NCBI GenBank assembly: GCA_049297675.1
Contig: JBAQUS010000004.1
Coordinates: 13,188-77,187, forward strand
Origin: Minisyncoccia bacterium
GTDB lineage: Bacteria > Patescibacteriota > Minisyncoccia > Phycocordibacterales > DATDWN01
Direction of reading: 5' to 3'
DNA: 64,000 bases
The translations under genes were made by a program, and so were the position numbers. Below are positions 4,143 to 64,000 of this stretch, piece after piece. The stretch's first letter is position 1. Each line of letters begins with the position of its first letter. The notes below the pieces were generated by a model. It saw nothing but the letters and a program-made list of their open reading frames with translations. It had not been told where the DNA came from and ran no database searches.

Positions 4143-5330
4143 CTATATAAAAGTTAGTGCCTTACCAAGCTTTCCGGCTCTCCCTGTTCGTCCTATTCTA
4201 TGTATGTAGTCTTCATGCGTGCCCGGTACATCGAAGTTAATAACGTGGCTTACATTTGGAATGTCCAAGCCTCTTGCCGCCACGTCTGTTGCAACGAGTA
4301 CTTTAGTTTTGTTTGCTTTAAAATCATTTAGAGCTCTCTGTCTTTGAGTTTGGTTTTTATTTCCATGTATTGCTGTGGAAGAGACTCCTCTTTTTGAGAG
4401 CTCATCAGATAGTTTTTGAACACCATGTTTTGTTCTAGCAAAAACCAAAACCTTCTCGAATTCATCTTTTGAGAGTAATCCGTGTAACACATCAACTTTT
4501 GGCAAATCGTTAACCCGTACAACATCTTGATGAACATTTTTTGCAGTATCACCTGTTTTAACAGAAATTCTAACAGGATTATTCAAAAATTCAGAAATAA
4601 GTTTTTCGATCTCATTTGAGAGCGTTGCTGAAAAGAAAAGGGTTTGTCTTTCTTTTGGCATTTTAGACATAACAAGTCTCATGTCGTTTATAAAACCCAT
4701 GTCTAGCATCCTATCTGCTTCATCCAAAACCACAGATCTATAATTTGAAATATTCAGAACTCCTCTTTCCATTAAATCTTTTATTCTTCCGGGTGTACCG
4801 ATTACAAATTGATTGTGAAATCGTAGCTGTCTTATTTGCCCGCCAATAGGTACTCCTCCAACAGCACAAACCGAATGAATGCCTACATTGCCAACAAATC
4901 CTTTAAGTTCATCGTTTATCTGTACTGCCAGTTCACGTGTCGGAGCTATGATAAGAACCTGCTCATTGACACCGTTGTAAACTTTATGAATAAGCGGAAT
5001 AAGAAAAGCCGCAGTTTTGCCTGTACCTGTATTTGCAATTCCAACAATATCTCTGCCAGCTAAAATCTCTGGAATGGCACCGTCTTGAATAGGTGTAGGT
5101 GTTACGTAACCTTTTTTTATAATGTTACCCTTCAAACCTTCCACAATTTTAAAGTCAGCAAAACTATGCTTAGGCACGAATGGTATTTCCTTCGCTACTT
5201 CAACTTTAGTATTTATATATCTAGAGACATCAATGCTTTTTTGTGCAAATTTTCCTCTACCTCTACCTCTTCCATTAAATCGTGGACTGGAAAAACTTCC
5301 ACGTCCAAAATTTCCATTATTTCTGTACAT
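4143..5330 (-). CDS. DEAD-box ATP-dependent RNA helicase with an N-terminal RG-rich tail
   Basis: Motifs NTGTGKTAAF, PTRELA, LDEADRMLD, FSATL and HRIGRTGRAG. Confidence 0.9.
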   Translation of the reverse strand: MYRNNGNFGRGSFSSPRFNGRGRGRGKFAQKSIDVSRYINTKVEVAKEIPFVPKHSFADFKIVEGLKGNIIKKGYVTPTPIQDGAIPEILAGRDIVGIANTGTGKTAAFLIPLIHKVYNGVNEQVLIIAPTRELAVQINDELKGFVGNVGIHSVCAVGGVPIGGQIRQLRFHNQFVIGTPGRIKDLMERGVLNISNYRSVVLDEADRMLDMGFINDMRLVMSKMPKERQTLFFSATLSNEIEKLISEFLNNPVRISVKTGDTAKNVHQDVVRVNDLPKVDVLHGLLSKDEFEKVLVFARTKHGVQKLSDELSKRGVSSTAIHGNKNQTQRQRALNDFKANKTKVLVATDVAARGLDIPNVSHVINFDVPGTHEDYIHRIGRTGRAGKLGKALTFI

Positions 5331-5562
5331 ATTATTTAGCGAATACTCGCTATAACCCTGAGCGTTATATTAAAATCTTGCTCCGACTCAAGGGTTTTAT
5401 GAAGGTCTAGCCTTCGCAATTAGAGAGTTAAAAGTCCCTGAAACCACTGAGATATTAAGTTATCCCACCATTATAGCAAATCCACATATTTTTGTCAAAT
5501 AAGCCGAAATAAACGCTTTGTTAGTAAATAAAAATGATATAATTCTTAACATACTTTGAACT

Positions 5563-5688
5563 ATGAAACTCGACGAAAACACATGTTTTCTGGCGTATCT
5601 CGGAATGCGTGTAGCATGAGAGTTAAGGAAAATTTTCAGCAGAAAATTATTCCGGCACCATAAAATATGTGTTGAGTAAGAGTTTCAT
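5563..5688. ncRNA. Candidate structured RNA or repeat, copy A (related to 26279-26401)
   Basis: Closing stems atgaaactc/gagtttcat and aacacat/atgtgtt. The conserved centre ..tcggaa..gag.ttaaggaaaatttt cagcag aaaatta.. is shared with copy B. An extended -10-like tgatataat lies about 20 nt upstream. Confidence 0.3.
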
Positions 5689-5706
5689 GTTCCATAACAA
5701 AAAACA

Positions 5707-6897
5707 ATGCAATTTGGTTATACCAACATCTTTCCCTACTTTGTAATCAGTGCCTTTATGGTCGCATTTTCTATTTTTGTGTTAAAAAGAAGTAGTTTTT
5801 TTCAAAAAATAGCCGAGGCTGAAGTATCTGAGAGATACGAAGCCTTGGATGGTTTACGTGGGTTTCTAGCTATCGGGGTTTTCTTTCAGCATGCTGTACA
5901 AAATTTCTCTTTCTTTCAAACTGGTGTTTGGGTAATCACCGACTCACGGTTTTACAGATTTTTAGGGGGAGAAGCTGTTATATTATTTTTCATTACCACA
6001 AGCTTTTTATATTGGACAAAACTGGTCTTAGTAAAAAGTCACGGTGAAAATCAAATGTTTCGGTTGTATCGAAGCCGGTTACTTAGATTAGCTCCTCTTT
6101 ATCTTTTTTCGGGACTATTGGTCAGTATTATTGCCCTGTATAATGTTGACTTCAGTATTATTTCAATAAGTGGTTTTTTTAGAGATATTTTTTATTGGCT
6201 AACACTTGGACTACACACCATCCAAAGCTTTAACGGCACTGACATAATACCTATCAATGCCGGAATACACTGGACACTAAGATACGAATGGGCATTTTAT
6301 CTCTTACTACCCCTAGTAGCATTTTTGATGAAAAATTCACTTGGTAAAATTGCTTCAGTTCTTATTTTGATAGGAATATTCTCCCTTCCCGACAGAGGAT
6401 ACTGGGCAATATTTCTTTTTGGCATTCTCTCCGCCTATATTGTAAGTTACTACCCATCTATTCCATGGTTTAAGAAAAATAATTGGTCAGCTTTGGTTCC
6501 ACTCGTGGGCCTGTTTCTTGTGTACTCAATAAATTACAAACCATACTCTTATGTTCAATATTTTATCAGTATGATAGTCTTTCTGTGTTTCGTATATGGC
6601 AACAATTTATTTGGATTGTTGAAAACGCCTTTCGCAAAATTTTTGAGCACTATTAGTTACAGTGTCTATCTTTTACATGGAATAGTCCTGTATATTGTTC
6701 TAAATATTGTAAACAAGTTCTATCCCGTAGCATCTCTTAGTCCGCTTCAGTATTGGACTGTCATTCTCTTTGCTGGAATAATAGTTATTGTTGTTTCGGC
6801 TCTATCTTATAGGTTCATTGAACACAGGTTCATAGAGAAAATCAAACTTGGTAAGAAAGGGTCGTCGCCTACACCTGTAATAGAAAAAGTTATTTGA
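5707..6897 (+). CDS. Acyltransferase family 3 integral membrane protein
   Basis: Multi-TM protein. The N-terminal LDGLRGFLAIGVFFQH motif is typical of acyltransferase_3. Confidence 0.7.
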   Translation: MQFGYTNIFPYFVISAFMVAFSIFVLKRSSFFQKIAEAEVSERYEALDGLRGFLAIGVFFQHAVQNFSFFQTGVWVITDSRFYRFLGGEAVILFFITTSFLYWTKLVLVKSHGENQMFRLYRSRLLRLAPLYLFSGLLVSIIALYNVDFSIISISGFFRDIFYWLTLGLHTIQSFNGTDIIPINAGIHWTLRYEWAFYLLLPLVAFLMKNSLGKIASVLILIGIFSLPDRGYWAIFLFGILSAYIVSYYPSIPWFKKNNWSALVPLVGLFLVYSINYKPYSYVQYFISMIVFLCFVYGNNLFGLLKTPFAKFLSTISYSVYLLHGIVLYIVLNIVNKFYPVASLSPLQYWTVILFAGIIVIVVSALSYRFIEHRFIEKIKLGKKGSSPTPVIEKVI

Positions 6898-12992: not shown

Positions 12993-13085
12993 GTCTTGAA
13001 TACTGCACTCAGCAGGTATGCTATGTCGGAATAGGTACTTGAGCCATTTCGACCCTCCTCGGAGTCCGAAACTATCTCAAGCTGG

Positions 13086-13156
13086 CTGGGGGGGAAGGAA
13101 TCGGACCTTCATTAGAAGCTTCAAAGGCTCCTGTCCTACCATTAGACGACCCCCCA
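13086..13156 (-). tRNA. tRNA-Gln (anticodon TTG)
   Basis: Hand-folded cloverleaf: TGGGGGG/CCCCCCA acceptor (U1-A72), anticodon arm GGAGC-CTTTGAA-GCTTC, T arm GAAGG-TCCGATT-CCTTC. CCA is encoded after the discriminator. Confidence 0.85.
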
Positions 13157-13266
13157 AATTTCTAGAATCAGGAAATCGGTCACAAATAATTTTCTGATGA
13201 AAATTTTCGCGACCCCGCCTCCTTCGTCTTCACTCAGTCCGGCCTTGCAAAAACATAACATGTTTT

Positions 13267-13319
13267 CTCACCCCTCTAAAGGCTTCAAAGGCCTCTGTTC
13301 TAGCGTGGGGCGTCTCCCA
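13267..13319 (-). pseudogene. Degenerate tRNA-Gln-like fragment
   Basis: The minus strand reads TGGGAGAC...GAGGC-CTTTGAA-GCCTT. The anticodon arm and 5' acceptor resemble the adjacent tRNA-Gln, but there is no foldable T arm or 3' acceptor. Confidence 0.35.
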
Positions 13320-13435
13320 ATATGCAATACAGTAACACTTTTTTTTGTCATCCTCAACTATTAGTCTAATCCAATTCACAATTACATACAAATATAAATT
13401 GATTAAACTTTAACTACTAATTAATTTACTTTGCT

Positions 13436-25953: not shown

Positions 25954-25961
25954 TCACTACA

Positions 25962-26042
25962 CAAAATTTCTTTCTCACTATTTATTTTTCCAGACCGCAT
26001 AAATCCTTGGTAGGATTTTGCTTAGCCTCGGCACTCTAAGAG
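25962..26042 (+). repeat. Conserved ~82-nt post-stop element, copy X1
   Basis: caaaatttctttctcac...tttttccagaccgcataaa-[hairpin]-ttgcttagcctcg...tctaaga. About four-fifths identical to 63919-64000 by hand alignment. Confidence 0.55.
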
Positions 26043-26278
26043 ACTCATCAAAGGATTACCTTTGTGATTCTCTAAAGTGCCTGCGGAGTCTTCCGAAGAG
26101 TTCACACTGACTACTGCGTCGGATATAAGACTTCGCATGCTAAACCTCCCTGTTCTTGCAAAAGGATACCAATCAAATCTAGTTTTGTCAAAAAATATTT
26201 TACAAATAAATAAACGAAGACTCCCATCGCTTGTTCACAATTGTGGCAAAAAATTCTCACAATGAGAACATGATGAAT

Positions 26279-26401
26279 AAAATCTCGTTGACTTGTAATT
26301 TTTTCAGAATATGTCGGAAGCCGAAGAGACCGAGACTTAAAGGAAAATTTCAGCAGAAATTTATCATGGTTCTGAAAAAATTATAAGGAAAAAGAGATTT
26401 T
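26279..26401. ncRNA. Candidate structured RNA or repeat, copy B (related to 5563-5688)
   Basis: Outer stems aaaatctc/gagatttt and ttgtaattttttcagaa/ttctgaaaaaattataa. The centre tcggaagcc..gagacttaaaggaaaattt cagcag aaatttatc is conserved with copy A. Confidence 0.3.
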
Positions 26402-26414
26402 GTAATTGAAGTTT

Positions 26415-27461
26415 TTATATGCTGAAGTTTTTGATGGAGTATAATTCTTCATCACTGCTATTTTCATCTCGAGACTTCTCTAGAGGTGTTCGGTCGTCCA
26501 TTTCCTTTAGGTCGCTTATAGTAAGGTCAACTGCAGTTGAGTCGTTAATATAGTTTGGAACATTTTCGTTTTTTGGGGGAATGGGATTTTCTACAATATG
26601 TTTATCTAACATTTCTGTGCCAGTCATTTTTTGATTGGATTTTATAAGTTCGAGAATTTGATGGAGGTCTTCGTTTGAGAAATAATCTATAAGAATTTTC
26701 CCGCCATTTTCTCTTTTCTCGATCGAAACCCTTGTTCCTAGTGTCTCTGTTAGTCTCTCTTCCATCTCCTGCGTTTCAGGATCTAGTGTAGCTCCCTTCT
26801 TTTTTATTTTGTCATAGGCAATCCTCCTACCAATTGCTTCGGTTTCCCTAACGGTCAATTTTTTATACATTATTTCCTTAAACAGTGTTTGTTGTTCGTC
26901 TGGTCTGTCACCCAGCATCATGAGGGGTCTTGCATGACCCTCTGTGATCTTGCCTTGAGAGATAGCATCTAGAATCTCCTTGGGAAGGGCTAAGAGCCTT
27001 ACGGAGTTTGAAACATATTCACGGCTCTTTCCAACTTTCTTGCCAATCTCATGGTGTTTAAAACCAAACTCATCAATAAGTCTTTGAAAAGCTCTGGCTC
27101 TATCAACAGGATTTAGATCCTCTCTTTGGATATTTTCTATTATTGCTAACTCAAGCTTCAATAAATCATTTTCTTCATCCCCTACTTTTATAAGTGCAGG
27201 CACTTGAGAAAGCCCGGCTATCTTCGATGCTCGAAGTCGTCTTTCGCCCGCTATGAGTTCATACTGAACATCGAGTCCTCCATCTTCTTTTTGAATCTCC
27301 TTTCGAGTGACAACGAGTGCTTGCAAAACTCCGTACTGCCTTATTGAATCTGCAAGAGACTGGAGTTCAGCTTCGTTAAATTCCCTTCTAGGTTGAAAGG
27401 GGTTAGGAATTATTTTGTCTACATCTATCCAGAAAATTGAATCCTTATAAAACTGGGACAT
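26415..27461 (-). CDS. parB: ParB/Spo0J partition protein
   Basis: LIAGERRLRASK ParB box, an HTH region and an acidic C-terminal extension. Confidence 0.85.
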   Translation of the reverse strand: MSQFYKDSIFWIDVDKIIPNPFQPRREFNEAELQSLADSIRQYGVLQALVVTRKEIQKEDGGLDVQYELIAGERRLRASKIAGLSQVPALIKVGDEENDLLKLELAIIENIQREDLNPVDRARAFQRLIDEFGFKHHEIGKKVGKSREYVSNSVRLLALPKEILDAISQGKITEGHARPLMMLGDRPDEQQTLFKEIMYKKLTVRETEAIGRRIAYDKIKKKGATLDPETQEMEERLTETLGTRVSIEKRENGGKILIDYFSNEDLHQILELIKSNQKMTGTEMLDKHIVENPIPPKNENVPNYINDSTAVDLTISDLKEMDDRTPLEKSRDENSSDEELYSIKNFSI

Positions 27462-44923: not shown

Positions 44924-45119
44924 CAAGCCGAAATAATCTAAACTGCTTTAGATTATTTCGGACTTGTGCGCAACCAGAATATACCTTTAGGTGATTCTGG
45001 TTGAGGTTTCGGGCTTGTGCGTTATTAAAACATGTTTACTAAATAGTTTGAATCGTGGTTTCAAATTTGTGTGTGAAAGTAAGATAGCAATATAATGTTT
45101 TAGTTTCAAGTTAACAATT

Positions 45120-63918: not shown

Positions 63919-64000
63919 CAAAATTTCTTTCTCACCAAATCTTTTTCCAGACCGCATAAAAGTTTGCTAACTTTTTGCTTAGCCTCGAAAATCTAAGAAA
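63919..64000 (+). repeat. Conserved post-stop element, copy X2 (runs to the window end)
   Basis: Aligns over 82 nt with 25962-26042. The internal hairpin changes from AAATCC/GGATTT to AAAAGTT/AACTTTT. Confidence 0.55.

Follow-up and report, generated by a model that had tools for sequence, protein, structure and literature searches.

The DNA analysed here (the window) is a 64,000-nucleotide (nt) stretch from a Minisyncoccia bacterium. It contains two hairpin-forming intergenic elements, copy A (5563-5688, + strand) and copy B (26278-26402, + strand), which are members of a previously undescribed family of small repeated elements distributed across Patescibacteria (candidate phyla radiation, CPR). 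The elements are 125-150 nt long and non-coding, with no consistent open reading frame (ORF), and full-text searches of the literature found no account of them. On balance, A and B are probably copies of a palindromic, interspersed, non-autonomous mobile element that resembles miniature inverted-repeat transposable elements (MITEs) and carries a conserved module of RNA or single-stranded DNA (ssDNA). The preliminary description of this DNA had presented them as a two-copy element and as a structured RNA rather than a MITE. The copy number was wrong: three weaker relatives lie in the window itself (13183-13243, 25962-26074 and 63919-64000, all on the - strand) and about 100 members elsewhere. 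The second claim stands in part, in that family-wide covariation and a strand-specific fold support a structured RNA, while 7-bp direct repeats, a burst of copies in one genome (JAUYJM01) and empty orthologous sites argue against setting the MITE aside.

Re-reading of the sequence confirmed both copies at the positions first reported. Each folds as a long hairpin, with a minimum free energy (MFE) of -44.3 kcal/mol (z -6.3) for A and -36.7 kcal/mol (z -5.2) for B, and none of 200 dinucleotide shuffles was as stable in either case. Their common centre aligns at 65% over 103 nt, and an 18-nt core word occurs three times in the window against 0.21 expected. The outer arms of A and B are without sequence similarity and yet paired in each copy, as had been described; the pairs quoted for A (AUGAAACUC/GAGUUUCAU and AACACAUGUUUU/AAAAUAUGUGUU) and for B (AAAAUCUC/GAGAUUUU and CUUGUAAUUUUUUCAGAA/UUCUGAAAAAAUUAUAAG) are right, each with one G.U. 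In copy A the pairing runs further outward, to 5558-5692, via GAAC/GUUC.

A covariance model (R1) was built from a seed of 13 full-length copies that included A and B, so that the scores of these two are somewhat inflated. The plan behind the model, which a side-by-side reading of family members revealed, consists of a helix P0, an internal loop, a P1 rod and a three-way junction with the hairpins P2 and P3. P0 is typically AAAUCUC/GAGAUUU and often prolonged outward, and the internal loop that follows is asymmetric and conserved (5'-GUYGA / 5'-GARAAA). The P1 rod comprises 15-30 bp, of which the distal part is free in sequence, whereas the part next to the junction is rich in U on the 5' strand and in A on the 3' strand. 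P2 is composed of a 3-bp base stem, a purine loop and a small variable hairpin, the loop differing by subtype (1a, 5'-GGA / 3'-GA with a 1-nt bulge; 1b, GA/GA; 1c, GCAA/GA). A short linker, usually CGA, separates P2 from P3, which is near-invariant across classes and reads GGAAAAUUU(U)C-AGCA-GAAA(A)UUUAU(U)CC, with an A bulged on the 3' strand. The parts of the two window copies are the following.

5563-5688, + strand: copy A, full element; R1 match of 108.9 bits, E 6e-26, over model positions 1-125; MFE z -6.3.
5563-5571, + strand: P0 of A, 5' strand AUGAAACUC, partner 5680-5688 GAGUUUCAU; model helix 1, in which 8 of 8 pairs covary.
5572-5576, + strand: conserved internal loop of A, 5' side GACGA (GUYGA in the family), with 3' side 5674-5679 GAGUAA (GARAAA in the family), as placed by the family alignments.
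5577-5595, + strand: P1 of A, 5' strand of the variable rod, partner 5655-5673, with one G.U at 5585/5666; helices 2-3, in which 18 of 18 pairs covary.
5599-5622, + strand: P2 hairpin of A, CUC-GGA-AUGC-GUGUA-GCAU-GA-GAG, with 3-bp base stem, GGA/GA purine loop and tip hairpin; helices 4-5, in which 6 of 6 pairs covary.
5627-5653, + strand: P3 hairpin of A, GGAAAAUUUUC-AGCA-GAAAAUU-A-UUCC, with the bulged A at 5649; the most conserved module of the family.
26278-26402, + strand: copy B, full element; R1 match of 106.9 bits, E 2e-25; MFE z -5.2.
26279-26286/26394-26401, + strand: P0 of B, with loop GUUGA/GAAAAA.
26292-26309/26370-26387, + strand: P1 of B, from the R1 match.
26313-26336, + strand: P2 of B, tip unpaired.
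26342-26366, + strand: P3 of B, the closing pair being a G.A mismatch.

Owing to its unpaired P2 tip and the G.A at its P3 closing pair, copy B is slightly degenerate.

The combination of conserved pairing and changed sequence, first noticed between A and B, holds throughout the family. In the R1-derived alignment, which is model-fitted and in which kinship between the sequences inflates such counts, all 43 modelled pairs have changed on both sides; standard pairs occupy 91.7% of cells, where column shuffles give 59.0% and sliding the partners by 1-3 columns gives 37-53%, and the covariation score is 0.618 versus 0.146. P3 covaries too, with an A-U/U-A flip at 62:35 and an A-U/G-C exchange at 47:42. 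Palindrome arms can, however, also covary at the DNA level, where template switching ("quasipalindrome correction") makes perfect palindromes. The covariation of P0 and P1 alone is therefore no proof of RNA function and is weaker evidence than it appears, whereas template switching accounts less readily for the covariation of the two short helices P2 and P3, for the conserved nucleotides that stay unpaired and for the asymmetry between the strands.

With R1, the reverse complements of A and B score 17.3 and 21.5 bits against 108.9 and 106.9 for the given strand, and reverse-strand scores are 4-5 times lower in the family. The given strand is the more stable one in 74 of 87 elements (mean 6.8 kcal/mol), and paired columns contain 100 G.U against 42 A.C. 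Three G.U pairs of a tRNA-linked variant (type 2, see below) are invariant in four metagenome-assembled genomes (MAGs) and would be A.C mismatches if the other strand were the one that folds. Taken together, the stability bias, the G.U excess, the reverse scores and the invariant G.U pairs indicate a constraint on one single strand, either RNA or ssDNA, and not on duplex DNA. A kink-turn consists of a three-nucleotide bulge and, next to it, tandem sheared G.A/A.G pairs; the purine loop of P2 has the subtype forms given above, and the P0/P1 loop measures 5 x 6 nt. Judged by these sequences tandem G.A is possible, in a geometry that is not canonical.

The extent of the family was explored with a 20-nt core word, GGAAAATTT(N)CAGCAGAAA(N)TT, in one genome per species of the Genome Taxonomy Database (GTDB). 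At least 111 stretches were found, mostly in Patescibacteria MAGs and often on several contigs per MAG; most of the matches listed carry the labels Saccharibacteria, Paceibacterota, Parcubacteria, Minisyncoccia, Taylorbacteria, Zambryskibacteria and Adlerbacteria. The covariance search of genome and lineage that the preliminary description had recommended was carried out with R1, which on 89 sources gave 108 matches (61 sources with E<1e-5) and, beyond the two strong window copies, about 100 further ones in at least 25 Patescibacteria MAGs. These include second and third copies without the exact search word in the same 8-kb loci, with up to 3-4 copies per 8-kb locus. Among the listed word matches from other phyla, the full model found no family member: only the core word matched, in unrelated surroundings and with at most 26 bits, and the family is restricted to Patescibacteria in this sample. 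In DNA chosen without regard to the element, one copy occurs in about every 30-40 kb (9 matches over the 375 kb fetched around parB, 1 over the 35 kb around the acyltransferase orthologues and 2 strong ones in the 64-kb window). The Rfam comparison, likewise recommended, found no Rfam 15 match to A or B, either in a gathering scan of the whole window, in which only tRNAs reach threshold, or at E<=10 over both intergenic regions; at E<=10 the type 2 loci gave nothing meaningful. A phage origin was rejected on the ground that only three word matches occur in IMG/VR, none of them a full element, and tRNA or tmRNA identity was rejected as well, neither being present in these elements.

Evidence for mobility comes from the sites that A and B occupy. 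As originally stated, copy A is located between the divergent genes of a DEAD-box helicase (4143-5330, -) and an acyltransferase (5707-6897, +; Acyl_transf_3), and copy B begins just past the parB stop, at a distance of 13 nt, on the strand opposite to parB (26415-27461, -). A Pfam scan of the neighbours identified a RelA/SpoT homologue (+) on the other side of B, convergent with parB. Gene content, together with an acyltransferase of 100% identity annotated 'Minisyncoccia bacterium', assigns the window to Patescibacteria. This parB is carried by the samples SRR28011841 and SRR28011830. The B site was surveyed in 80 metagenomic loci (L numbers denote individual fetched loci) whose ParB orthologues are 54-84% identical. 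The parB/relA spacer is empty in five of them (L117, L119, L123, L127 and L128), the convergent relA/spoT stop lying about 25-45 nt past the parB stop, and only L118 has an orthologue of B in the same place and orientation. A family member of 121 bits occupies this spacer in L121 in the opposite orientation, other variants occur in L122, L124 and L126, and unrelated inserts in L120 and L125. As a separate observation, L121, L124 and L125, which carry different inserts, have in common a word just past the parB stop, (C)TTC(C)AAATCTG(R)C(S)AA; it may be another small element or a conserved 3' signal.

Upstream of the acyltransferase, the element is absent in all 7 loci that represent the five orthologues (67-83% identity). 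In the closest acyltransferase relative (L197), an extended -10 box, TGATATACT, is followed by the ATG after 21 nt without any element, whereas in the window the box and the conserved ATG (5707) are parted by copy A.

5535-5543, + strand: extended -10 box TGATATAAT, likely the acyltransferase promoter; the same box, TGATATACT, stands 21 nt before the ATG in the element-free relative.

The direct arrangement in L197 as opposed to the interrupted one in the window identifies A as a lineage-specific insertion in the 5' leader, in sense orientation, 15-18 nt before the start codon. Since it lies downstream of the likely acyltransferase -10 box, copy A is inside that gene's leader and would be passively transcribed. 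Both window copies are thus absent in relatives whose flanking proteins are 83-84% identical. A scan for a stem plus U-run detected no terminator-like site at A and none overlapping B, and over 71 copies -10-like boxes were found 28 times in the sense upstream flank and 26 times in the antisense downstream flank, an equal frequency that argues against a dedicated promoter. Neither A nor B has a dedicated promoter or terminator.

In MAG JAUYJM01 (C24_metabat.bin.140), a recent burst of one sublineage, with six near-identical copies (L024, L028, L042, L049, L055 and L073), shares conserved 35-nt arms, CCTATCCCCTGACGGCATRATTTTCGGAAC, with asymmetric tips (CTT... / ...TCTGGA). Exact 7-bp direct repeats flank two of them (AGCGCTG in L028 and AAAACTC in L055), and a third matches at 6 of 7 positions (TAATTAG/TAATTAA in L049). 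In two of the six copies the P2-P3 core has the opposite orientation to that of the asymmetric tips, as expected from recombination or template switching across inverted arms. Family-wide, in a test that allowed a non-palindromic tip of 0-6 nt, direct repeats of at least 7 bp flank 5 of 69 elements against 0.55 expected, which none of 1000 partner shuffles reached, and repeats of at least 6 bp flank 6 of 69 against 1.67 expected (P = 0.003). Further 7-bp examples, from different MAGs, are TACTTAC, ATGTAAG and TTAATAT. The preliminary description had held that conserved termini together with target-site duplications would indicate a MITE; the duplications are indeed enriched, and the termini are conserved only within the JAUYJM01 burst.

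Two further observations bear on how copies change. A decayed derivative at L197 4240-4327 (-) retains P0, the GUCGA/GAGUAA loop and P1 intact around an apex of about 19 nt that still reads ..CAGCAAAAUAUUC.., and has apparently lost P2 and the 5' half of P3 by deletion. In CAZQKU01, five copies (L032, L056, L067, L075 and L093) have an identical 62-nt core and unrelated arms, each forming a perfect or near-perfect palindrome of 29-31 bp. This sharp boundary between core and arm may possibly result from gene conversion of the cores, from homogenisation of the arms by template switching or from the acquisition of new arms at insertion; perfect arms round an identical core could reflect strong structural selection or DNA template switching. 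Within the fetched loci, arm 14-mers matched only orthologous or paralogous copies or A/T-rich sequence by chance, and the idea that arms are copied from nearby or other sequence, as a guide or target, was rejected within the same scope.

Regarding their surroundings, 18 copies are in co-oriented tandem contexts, 12 in anti-oriented, 11 in convergent and 6 in divergent ones, mostly abutting gene 3' ends, so that with respect to flanking genes the bias in orientation is weak (18 versus 12 in tandem). In 24 copies the start falls no more than 60 nt past the stop codon of an upstream gene in the same orientation, and in 19 the end is no more than 60 nt away from the 3' end of a convergent gene. 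This placement fits selection against harmful insertions. A general link to intrinsic terminators was rejected, only 5 of 76 copies having one within 90 nt upstream.

A mobile element of this kind would insert into permissive intergenic DNA through a staggered 7-bp cut made by a factor acting in trans, typically at gene 3' ends and in convergent spacers, leaders and tRNA trailers. The internal loop and the P2-P3 apex probably serve, as a single strand of RNA or ssDNA, as the handle for the mobilising factor or for a conserved host protein, and the arms may be kept paired by compensatory change, by DNA template switching or by both. Copy A would have entered the acyltransferase leader in sense and copy B the parB/relA convergent spacer, antisense to parB, each then being carried passively in neighbouring transcripts. 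Sharing of the module between the mobile form and type 2 would be analogous to short interspersed nuclear elements (SINEs), which carry tRNA or 7SL modules.

Several points weigh against this interpretation. Neither an autonomous parent nor a transposase partner was found, and no pair of element ends enclosing 0.25-5 kb, in a search of about 200 fetched loci only. Except within the JAUYJM01 burst, the termini vary from copy to copy and from genome to genome, whereas classical MITEs have terminal repeats that serve as the recognition site, and clear target-site duplications surround only a minority of copies. The near-identity of P3 across class- and phylum-level lineages (MAG labels as deposited) is unusual for selfish DNA and suits a cellular RNA function better. 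In addition, gain and loss at orthologous sites could partly be deletion rather than insertion.

An RNA function is suggested above all by relatives that carry the P2-P3 module elsewhere. Those of type 2 are without the long rod and consist of a P1 of 5-7 bp, GCC-GGA-[hairpin]-GA-GGC and a P3 with a G+C-rich extension. They are located on the tRNA strand, 50-100 nt downstream of genes for tRNAs of many isotypes (Glu, Lys, Ile, Asp, Ala, Gly, Tyr), and are usually preceded by a hairpin with a U-run. The tRNA-Glu copy is almost invariant in four MAGs, in which the preceding hairpin shows compensatory changes, and one copy (L046) has no upstream tRNA and a TGTATAAT box (-10) in front. From sequence and position, the module thus also occurs in what look like stable, position-conserved, transcribed small RNA genes, which is the main reason for thinking that it acts as RNA; by analogy, the mobile form probably carries a real RNA module. 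A group I intron was rejected as an explanation of type 2, with no Intron_gpI match in 17 type 2 loci and with intact adjacent tRNAs; group I introns lying within tRNA genes are known in Patescibacteria according to a survey (PMC13011429).

Extending this line of thought, the P2-P3 junction and the GUYGA/GARAAA loop might form a Patescibacteria-specific protein-binding RNA module, present in a stable type 2 small RNA (sRNA) and in about 25-30 dispersed type 1 copies per genome, a possibility that we entertain tentatively. If true, the type 1 copies would use the module for mobilisation, as a bacterial SINE-like element, or as a protein handle on mRNA leaders and trailers, and the module would stand for an abundant class of RNA that is new, in the largest of the uncultured bacterial radiations. 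That the copies are not mobile at all is rather unlikely. They would then be multi-copy functional structured RNAs, either sRNAs or cis-acting modules in untranslated regions (UTRs) or between cistrons, binding a conserved protein via P3 and the GA loops and descending from old paralogues with ordinary gain and loss. Such RNAs would account for the covariation of every helix, the short P2 and P3 included, for the strand asymmetry, and for a near-invariant P3 and unpaired loops conserved across distant lineages. The tRNA-Glu type 2 position kept in four MAGs with its compensated flanking hairpin, the type 2 copy with its own TGTATAAT box and an orthologous pair (L087/L089) with a compensatory change from U-A to C-G in P2 point in the same direction. 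They would leave unexplained, however, the absence of a conserved promoter, with -10-like boxes showing no strand preference, and the near-random orientation towards neighbouring genes. The enrichment of target-site duplications, the near-identical burst in one MAG, the different members in different orientations that close relatives carry in the same spacer, the lack of A and B next to flanking proteins of 83-84% identity and the decayed core-less derivatives also speak for movement.

The one-strand constraint could also be read at the level of ssDNA, the fold being the recognition structure of an HUH/Y1-type, integron-integrase-like or similar enzyme that acts on one strand during replication or transformation, RNA being irrelevant. 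We regard this as improbable. It agrees with the asymmetry, the bulged bases and the loops tolerant of G.A and G.T, with the variable sequence and conserved structure that also characterise attC sites and REP hairpins, with the absence of a dedicated promoter and with the finding that elements stand either way round with respect to transcription. Target-site duplications of 7 bp are enriched here, though, and neither Y1/HUH nor integron recombination leaves any; the element ends do not contain the R-box signature of attC, GTTRRRY, type 2 copies in tRNA operons or behind a -10 box suggest transcription, and no such enzyme gene was seen beside any copy. There is also little probability that the elements are host-beneficial 3'-end hairpins, spread by their usefulness as terminators or as barriers to exonucleases or RNase III that protect mRNAs or separate operon transcripts. 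The 24 copies near co-oriented stop codons and the 19 near convergent gene 3' ends, the very stable rods and a P0 that is an A-tract/U-tract pair (AAAUCUC/GAGAUUUU) would be in keeping with this role. Nevertheless, A and B have no stem plus U-run terminator, copy A is situated in a 5' leader, most type 2 copies and a few others stand just downstream of a canonical same-strand intrinsic terminator, a plain stabiliser needs no asymmetric three-way junction conserved in sequence, and the orientation bias is weak.

Besides A and B, the window contains one relative of type 2 and two of a further type 3.

13183-13243, - strand: copy C, type 2, P2-P3 module only; R1 match of 23.8 bits, E 0.002, model positions 36-90.
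25962-26074, - strand: element D, type 3; R1 match of 26.7 bits, E 3e-4; fold z -4.7.
63919-64000, - strand: element E, type 3, cut by the window end; R1 match of 32.8 bits, E 8e-6, 5' end missing.

Copy C reads GCC-GGA-..-GA-GGC, then GGUCGC-GAAAAUUUUCAUCAGAAAAUUAUUU-GUGACC, and belongs to a structured stretch of about 165 nt directly upstream of tRNA-Gln (13083-13156, -). The stretch upstream of this tRNA-Gln(ttg), at 13165-13335 (-), also comprises a tRNA-like but degenerate piece, whose anticodon stem is Gln-like (GAGGCCUUUGAAGCCUU), and a hairpin alongside the type 2 module, all enclosed by a long-range helix CUAGAA.. / ..UUCUAG; ARAGORN calls no tRNA there. No type 2 copy is present between the window genes for tRNA-Lys and tRNA-Leu(tag), where L031 has one. 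The same gap in the window (44925-45030, +) holds a hairpin CCGAAAUAAUCUAAA..UUUAGAUUAUUUCGG, then a hairpin flanked by a repeated CUUGUGCG word.

Type 3 shares the P3 geometry, with another stem sequence (GCAAAA-NNNN-ANCA-NNNN-UUUAUGC), and the 3' tail, GUGAGAAAGAAAUUUUG. Element D reads ..GAGGCUAA-GCAAAAUCCU-ACCA-AGGAUUU-A-UGC-GGUCUGG..GUGAGAAAGAAAUUUUG and element E reads GAGGCUAA-GCAAAAAGUU-AGCA-AACUUUU-A-UGC-GGUCUGG..GUGAGAAAGAAAUUUUG; the two closely resemble each other from GAGGCUAA through GUGAGAAAGAAAUUUUG, with an upper P3 stem that differs and is compensated. No homologues of the words specific to D and E were found in about 200 fetched loci. D is downstream of a strong minus-strand promoter (26191-26163) that adjoins B. 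The stretch 25955-26191 (-) begins with this promoter, TTGACA-17-TATCCT with a TG extension, followed by about 200 nt of structured sequence (MFE z -4.7) ending in D; GGGAGG-N6-ATG opens a 38-codon ORF in it (26022-26138, -). It is a candidate for a new small RNA or else for a tiny gene, and has no Rfam match. In L023 (4977-5072, Adlerbacteria), L047 and L109, P3 stands first in the element before other hairpins, or beside a reversed tRNA T-arm-like sequence, which suggests further architectures round the same P3 hairpin.

Promoters also explain a motif, ttttgtcaaa...aaataaacg, which had been reported upstream of both copies. It does occur before A and B, but is not part of the element: in both places it is a minus-strand promoter of which the motif contains the -35 box, and both promoters face away from their elements.

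5470-5498, - strand: TTGACA-17-TATAAT, the DEAD-box helicase promoter (12 of 12 positions, TG extension), equal to the motif at A; not part of the element.
26163-26191, - strand: TTGACA-17-TATCCT, the promoter toward element D (10 of 12 positions, TG extension), equal to the motif at B; not part of copy B.

As no similar motif lies upstream of other family members, it was rejected as an element component. Two nonamers, TTATCCCAC and AAATCCACA, at 5460-5486 (+) resemble the DnaA-box consensus TTATCCACA; they share sequence with the region of the helicase promoter, at a distance of about 21 kb from parB, and could be chance in A/T-rich DNA.

Patescibacteria genomes are tiny and streamlined and are thought to be poor in repetitive and mobile DNA. 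With roughly one copy in every 30-40 kb, a conserved element of 125-150 nt would rank among their commonest non-coding features. It marks insertion-tolerant sites and perturbs the leaders and 3' ends of housekeeping genes, here the O-acyltransferase leader and the parB/relA spacer, and it could confound assembly and binning; R1 provides a ready covariance model for annotating these genomes. Should the apex be an RNA-protein module, it would pose a testable question of RNA biology in organisms that are now culturable and genetically tractable. Should the element be purely selfish, it would represent a MITE of unusual design, conserved inside and free at its termini, and the enzyme that mobilises it would be worth a search.

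Among known systems, several candidates were rejected. An intrinsic terminator requires a G+C-rich stem and U-run, which neither A nor B has. Hammerhead ribozymes, helix 8 of the signal recognition particle (SRP) RNA, group II intron domains D5/D6 and RNase P CR-I differ by eye in their core motifs and gave no Rfam match. Retron msr-msd RNAs also have variable flanking inverted repeats (a1/a2) round conserved hairpins, but the copy number here is tens per genome, and a retron was rejected as the window neighbours (DEAD-box helicase, acyltransferase, ParB and RelA/SpoT by Pfam scan) include no reverse transcriptase. Integron attC sites share the conserved structure with variable sequence, the one-strand fold, extrahelical bases, an unpaired central spacer and a site just after genes. 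They differ in their RYYYAAC/GTTRRRY core sites and cassette arrays, while the present family has a conserved apex and target-site duplications; an attC site was rejected since the element bases read AAAUCUC ... GAGAUUU with the GUYGA/GARAAA loop and not RYYYAAC ... GTTRRRY.

SINEs, which derive from tRNAs or, as in Alu, from 7SL, offer the analogy of a non-autonomous repeat that shares a module, here P2-P3-like, with a stable small RNA gene and is flanked by short duplications. The present elements differ in showing no sign of an RNA intermediate, of a poly-A or other 3' tail or of a reverse transcriptase, and the survey mentioned above (PMC13011429) reported that Patescibacteria have no group II introns. 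A transposase or integrase would account better for a duplication fixed at 7 bp.

REP/BIME elements, and REPINs with their RAYT (Y1) enzymes, are likewise abundant extragenic palindromes at gene 3' ends that form strand-specific hairpins, and their mobilisation in trans is attributed to a single-copy enzyme. REPs are 20-40 nt long with a conserved GTAG head and conserved arms, whereas the element described here has a branched apex and three times the length; Y1 enzymes are expected to leave no target-site duplication, and no RAYT-like gene was seen. Bacterial MITEs (Correia/NEMIS in Neisseria, ERIC/IRU in enterobacteria, RUP and BOX in pneumococci and the Rickettsia palindromic elements, RPE) are alike in being non-coding sequences of 100-150 nt with tens of dispersed copies at intergenic sites near gene ends. 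Long inverted-repeat arms, a stable hairpin, duplications in a subset, presence/absence polymorphism and passive co-transcription are also shared. Unlike them, the present family has an asymmetric three-way junction with covarying helices, is kept across class- and phylum-level lineages rather than within one genus, and has no parent insertion sequence in the fetched loci. Classical MITEs have conserved termini and a variable interior, and this element is the reverse. Measured by what defines a MITE, it has the small size (below about 600 bp), the lack of coding capacity, the many dispersed copies, the fixed-length duplications (in a minority) and the orthologous-site polymorphism, and lacks terminal inverted repeats conserved among copies, the arms differing even within CAZQKU01. 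Measured as a structured RNA, it has compensatory helix changes and a strand-specific fold, in a model-fitted alignment and with template-switch covariation possible. Having no REP head or RAYT gene, it nevertheless resembles most, in how it works, the hairpin-forming MITEs (Correia, ERIC, BOX and RPE) and REP/REPIN elements.

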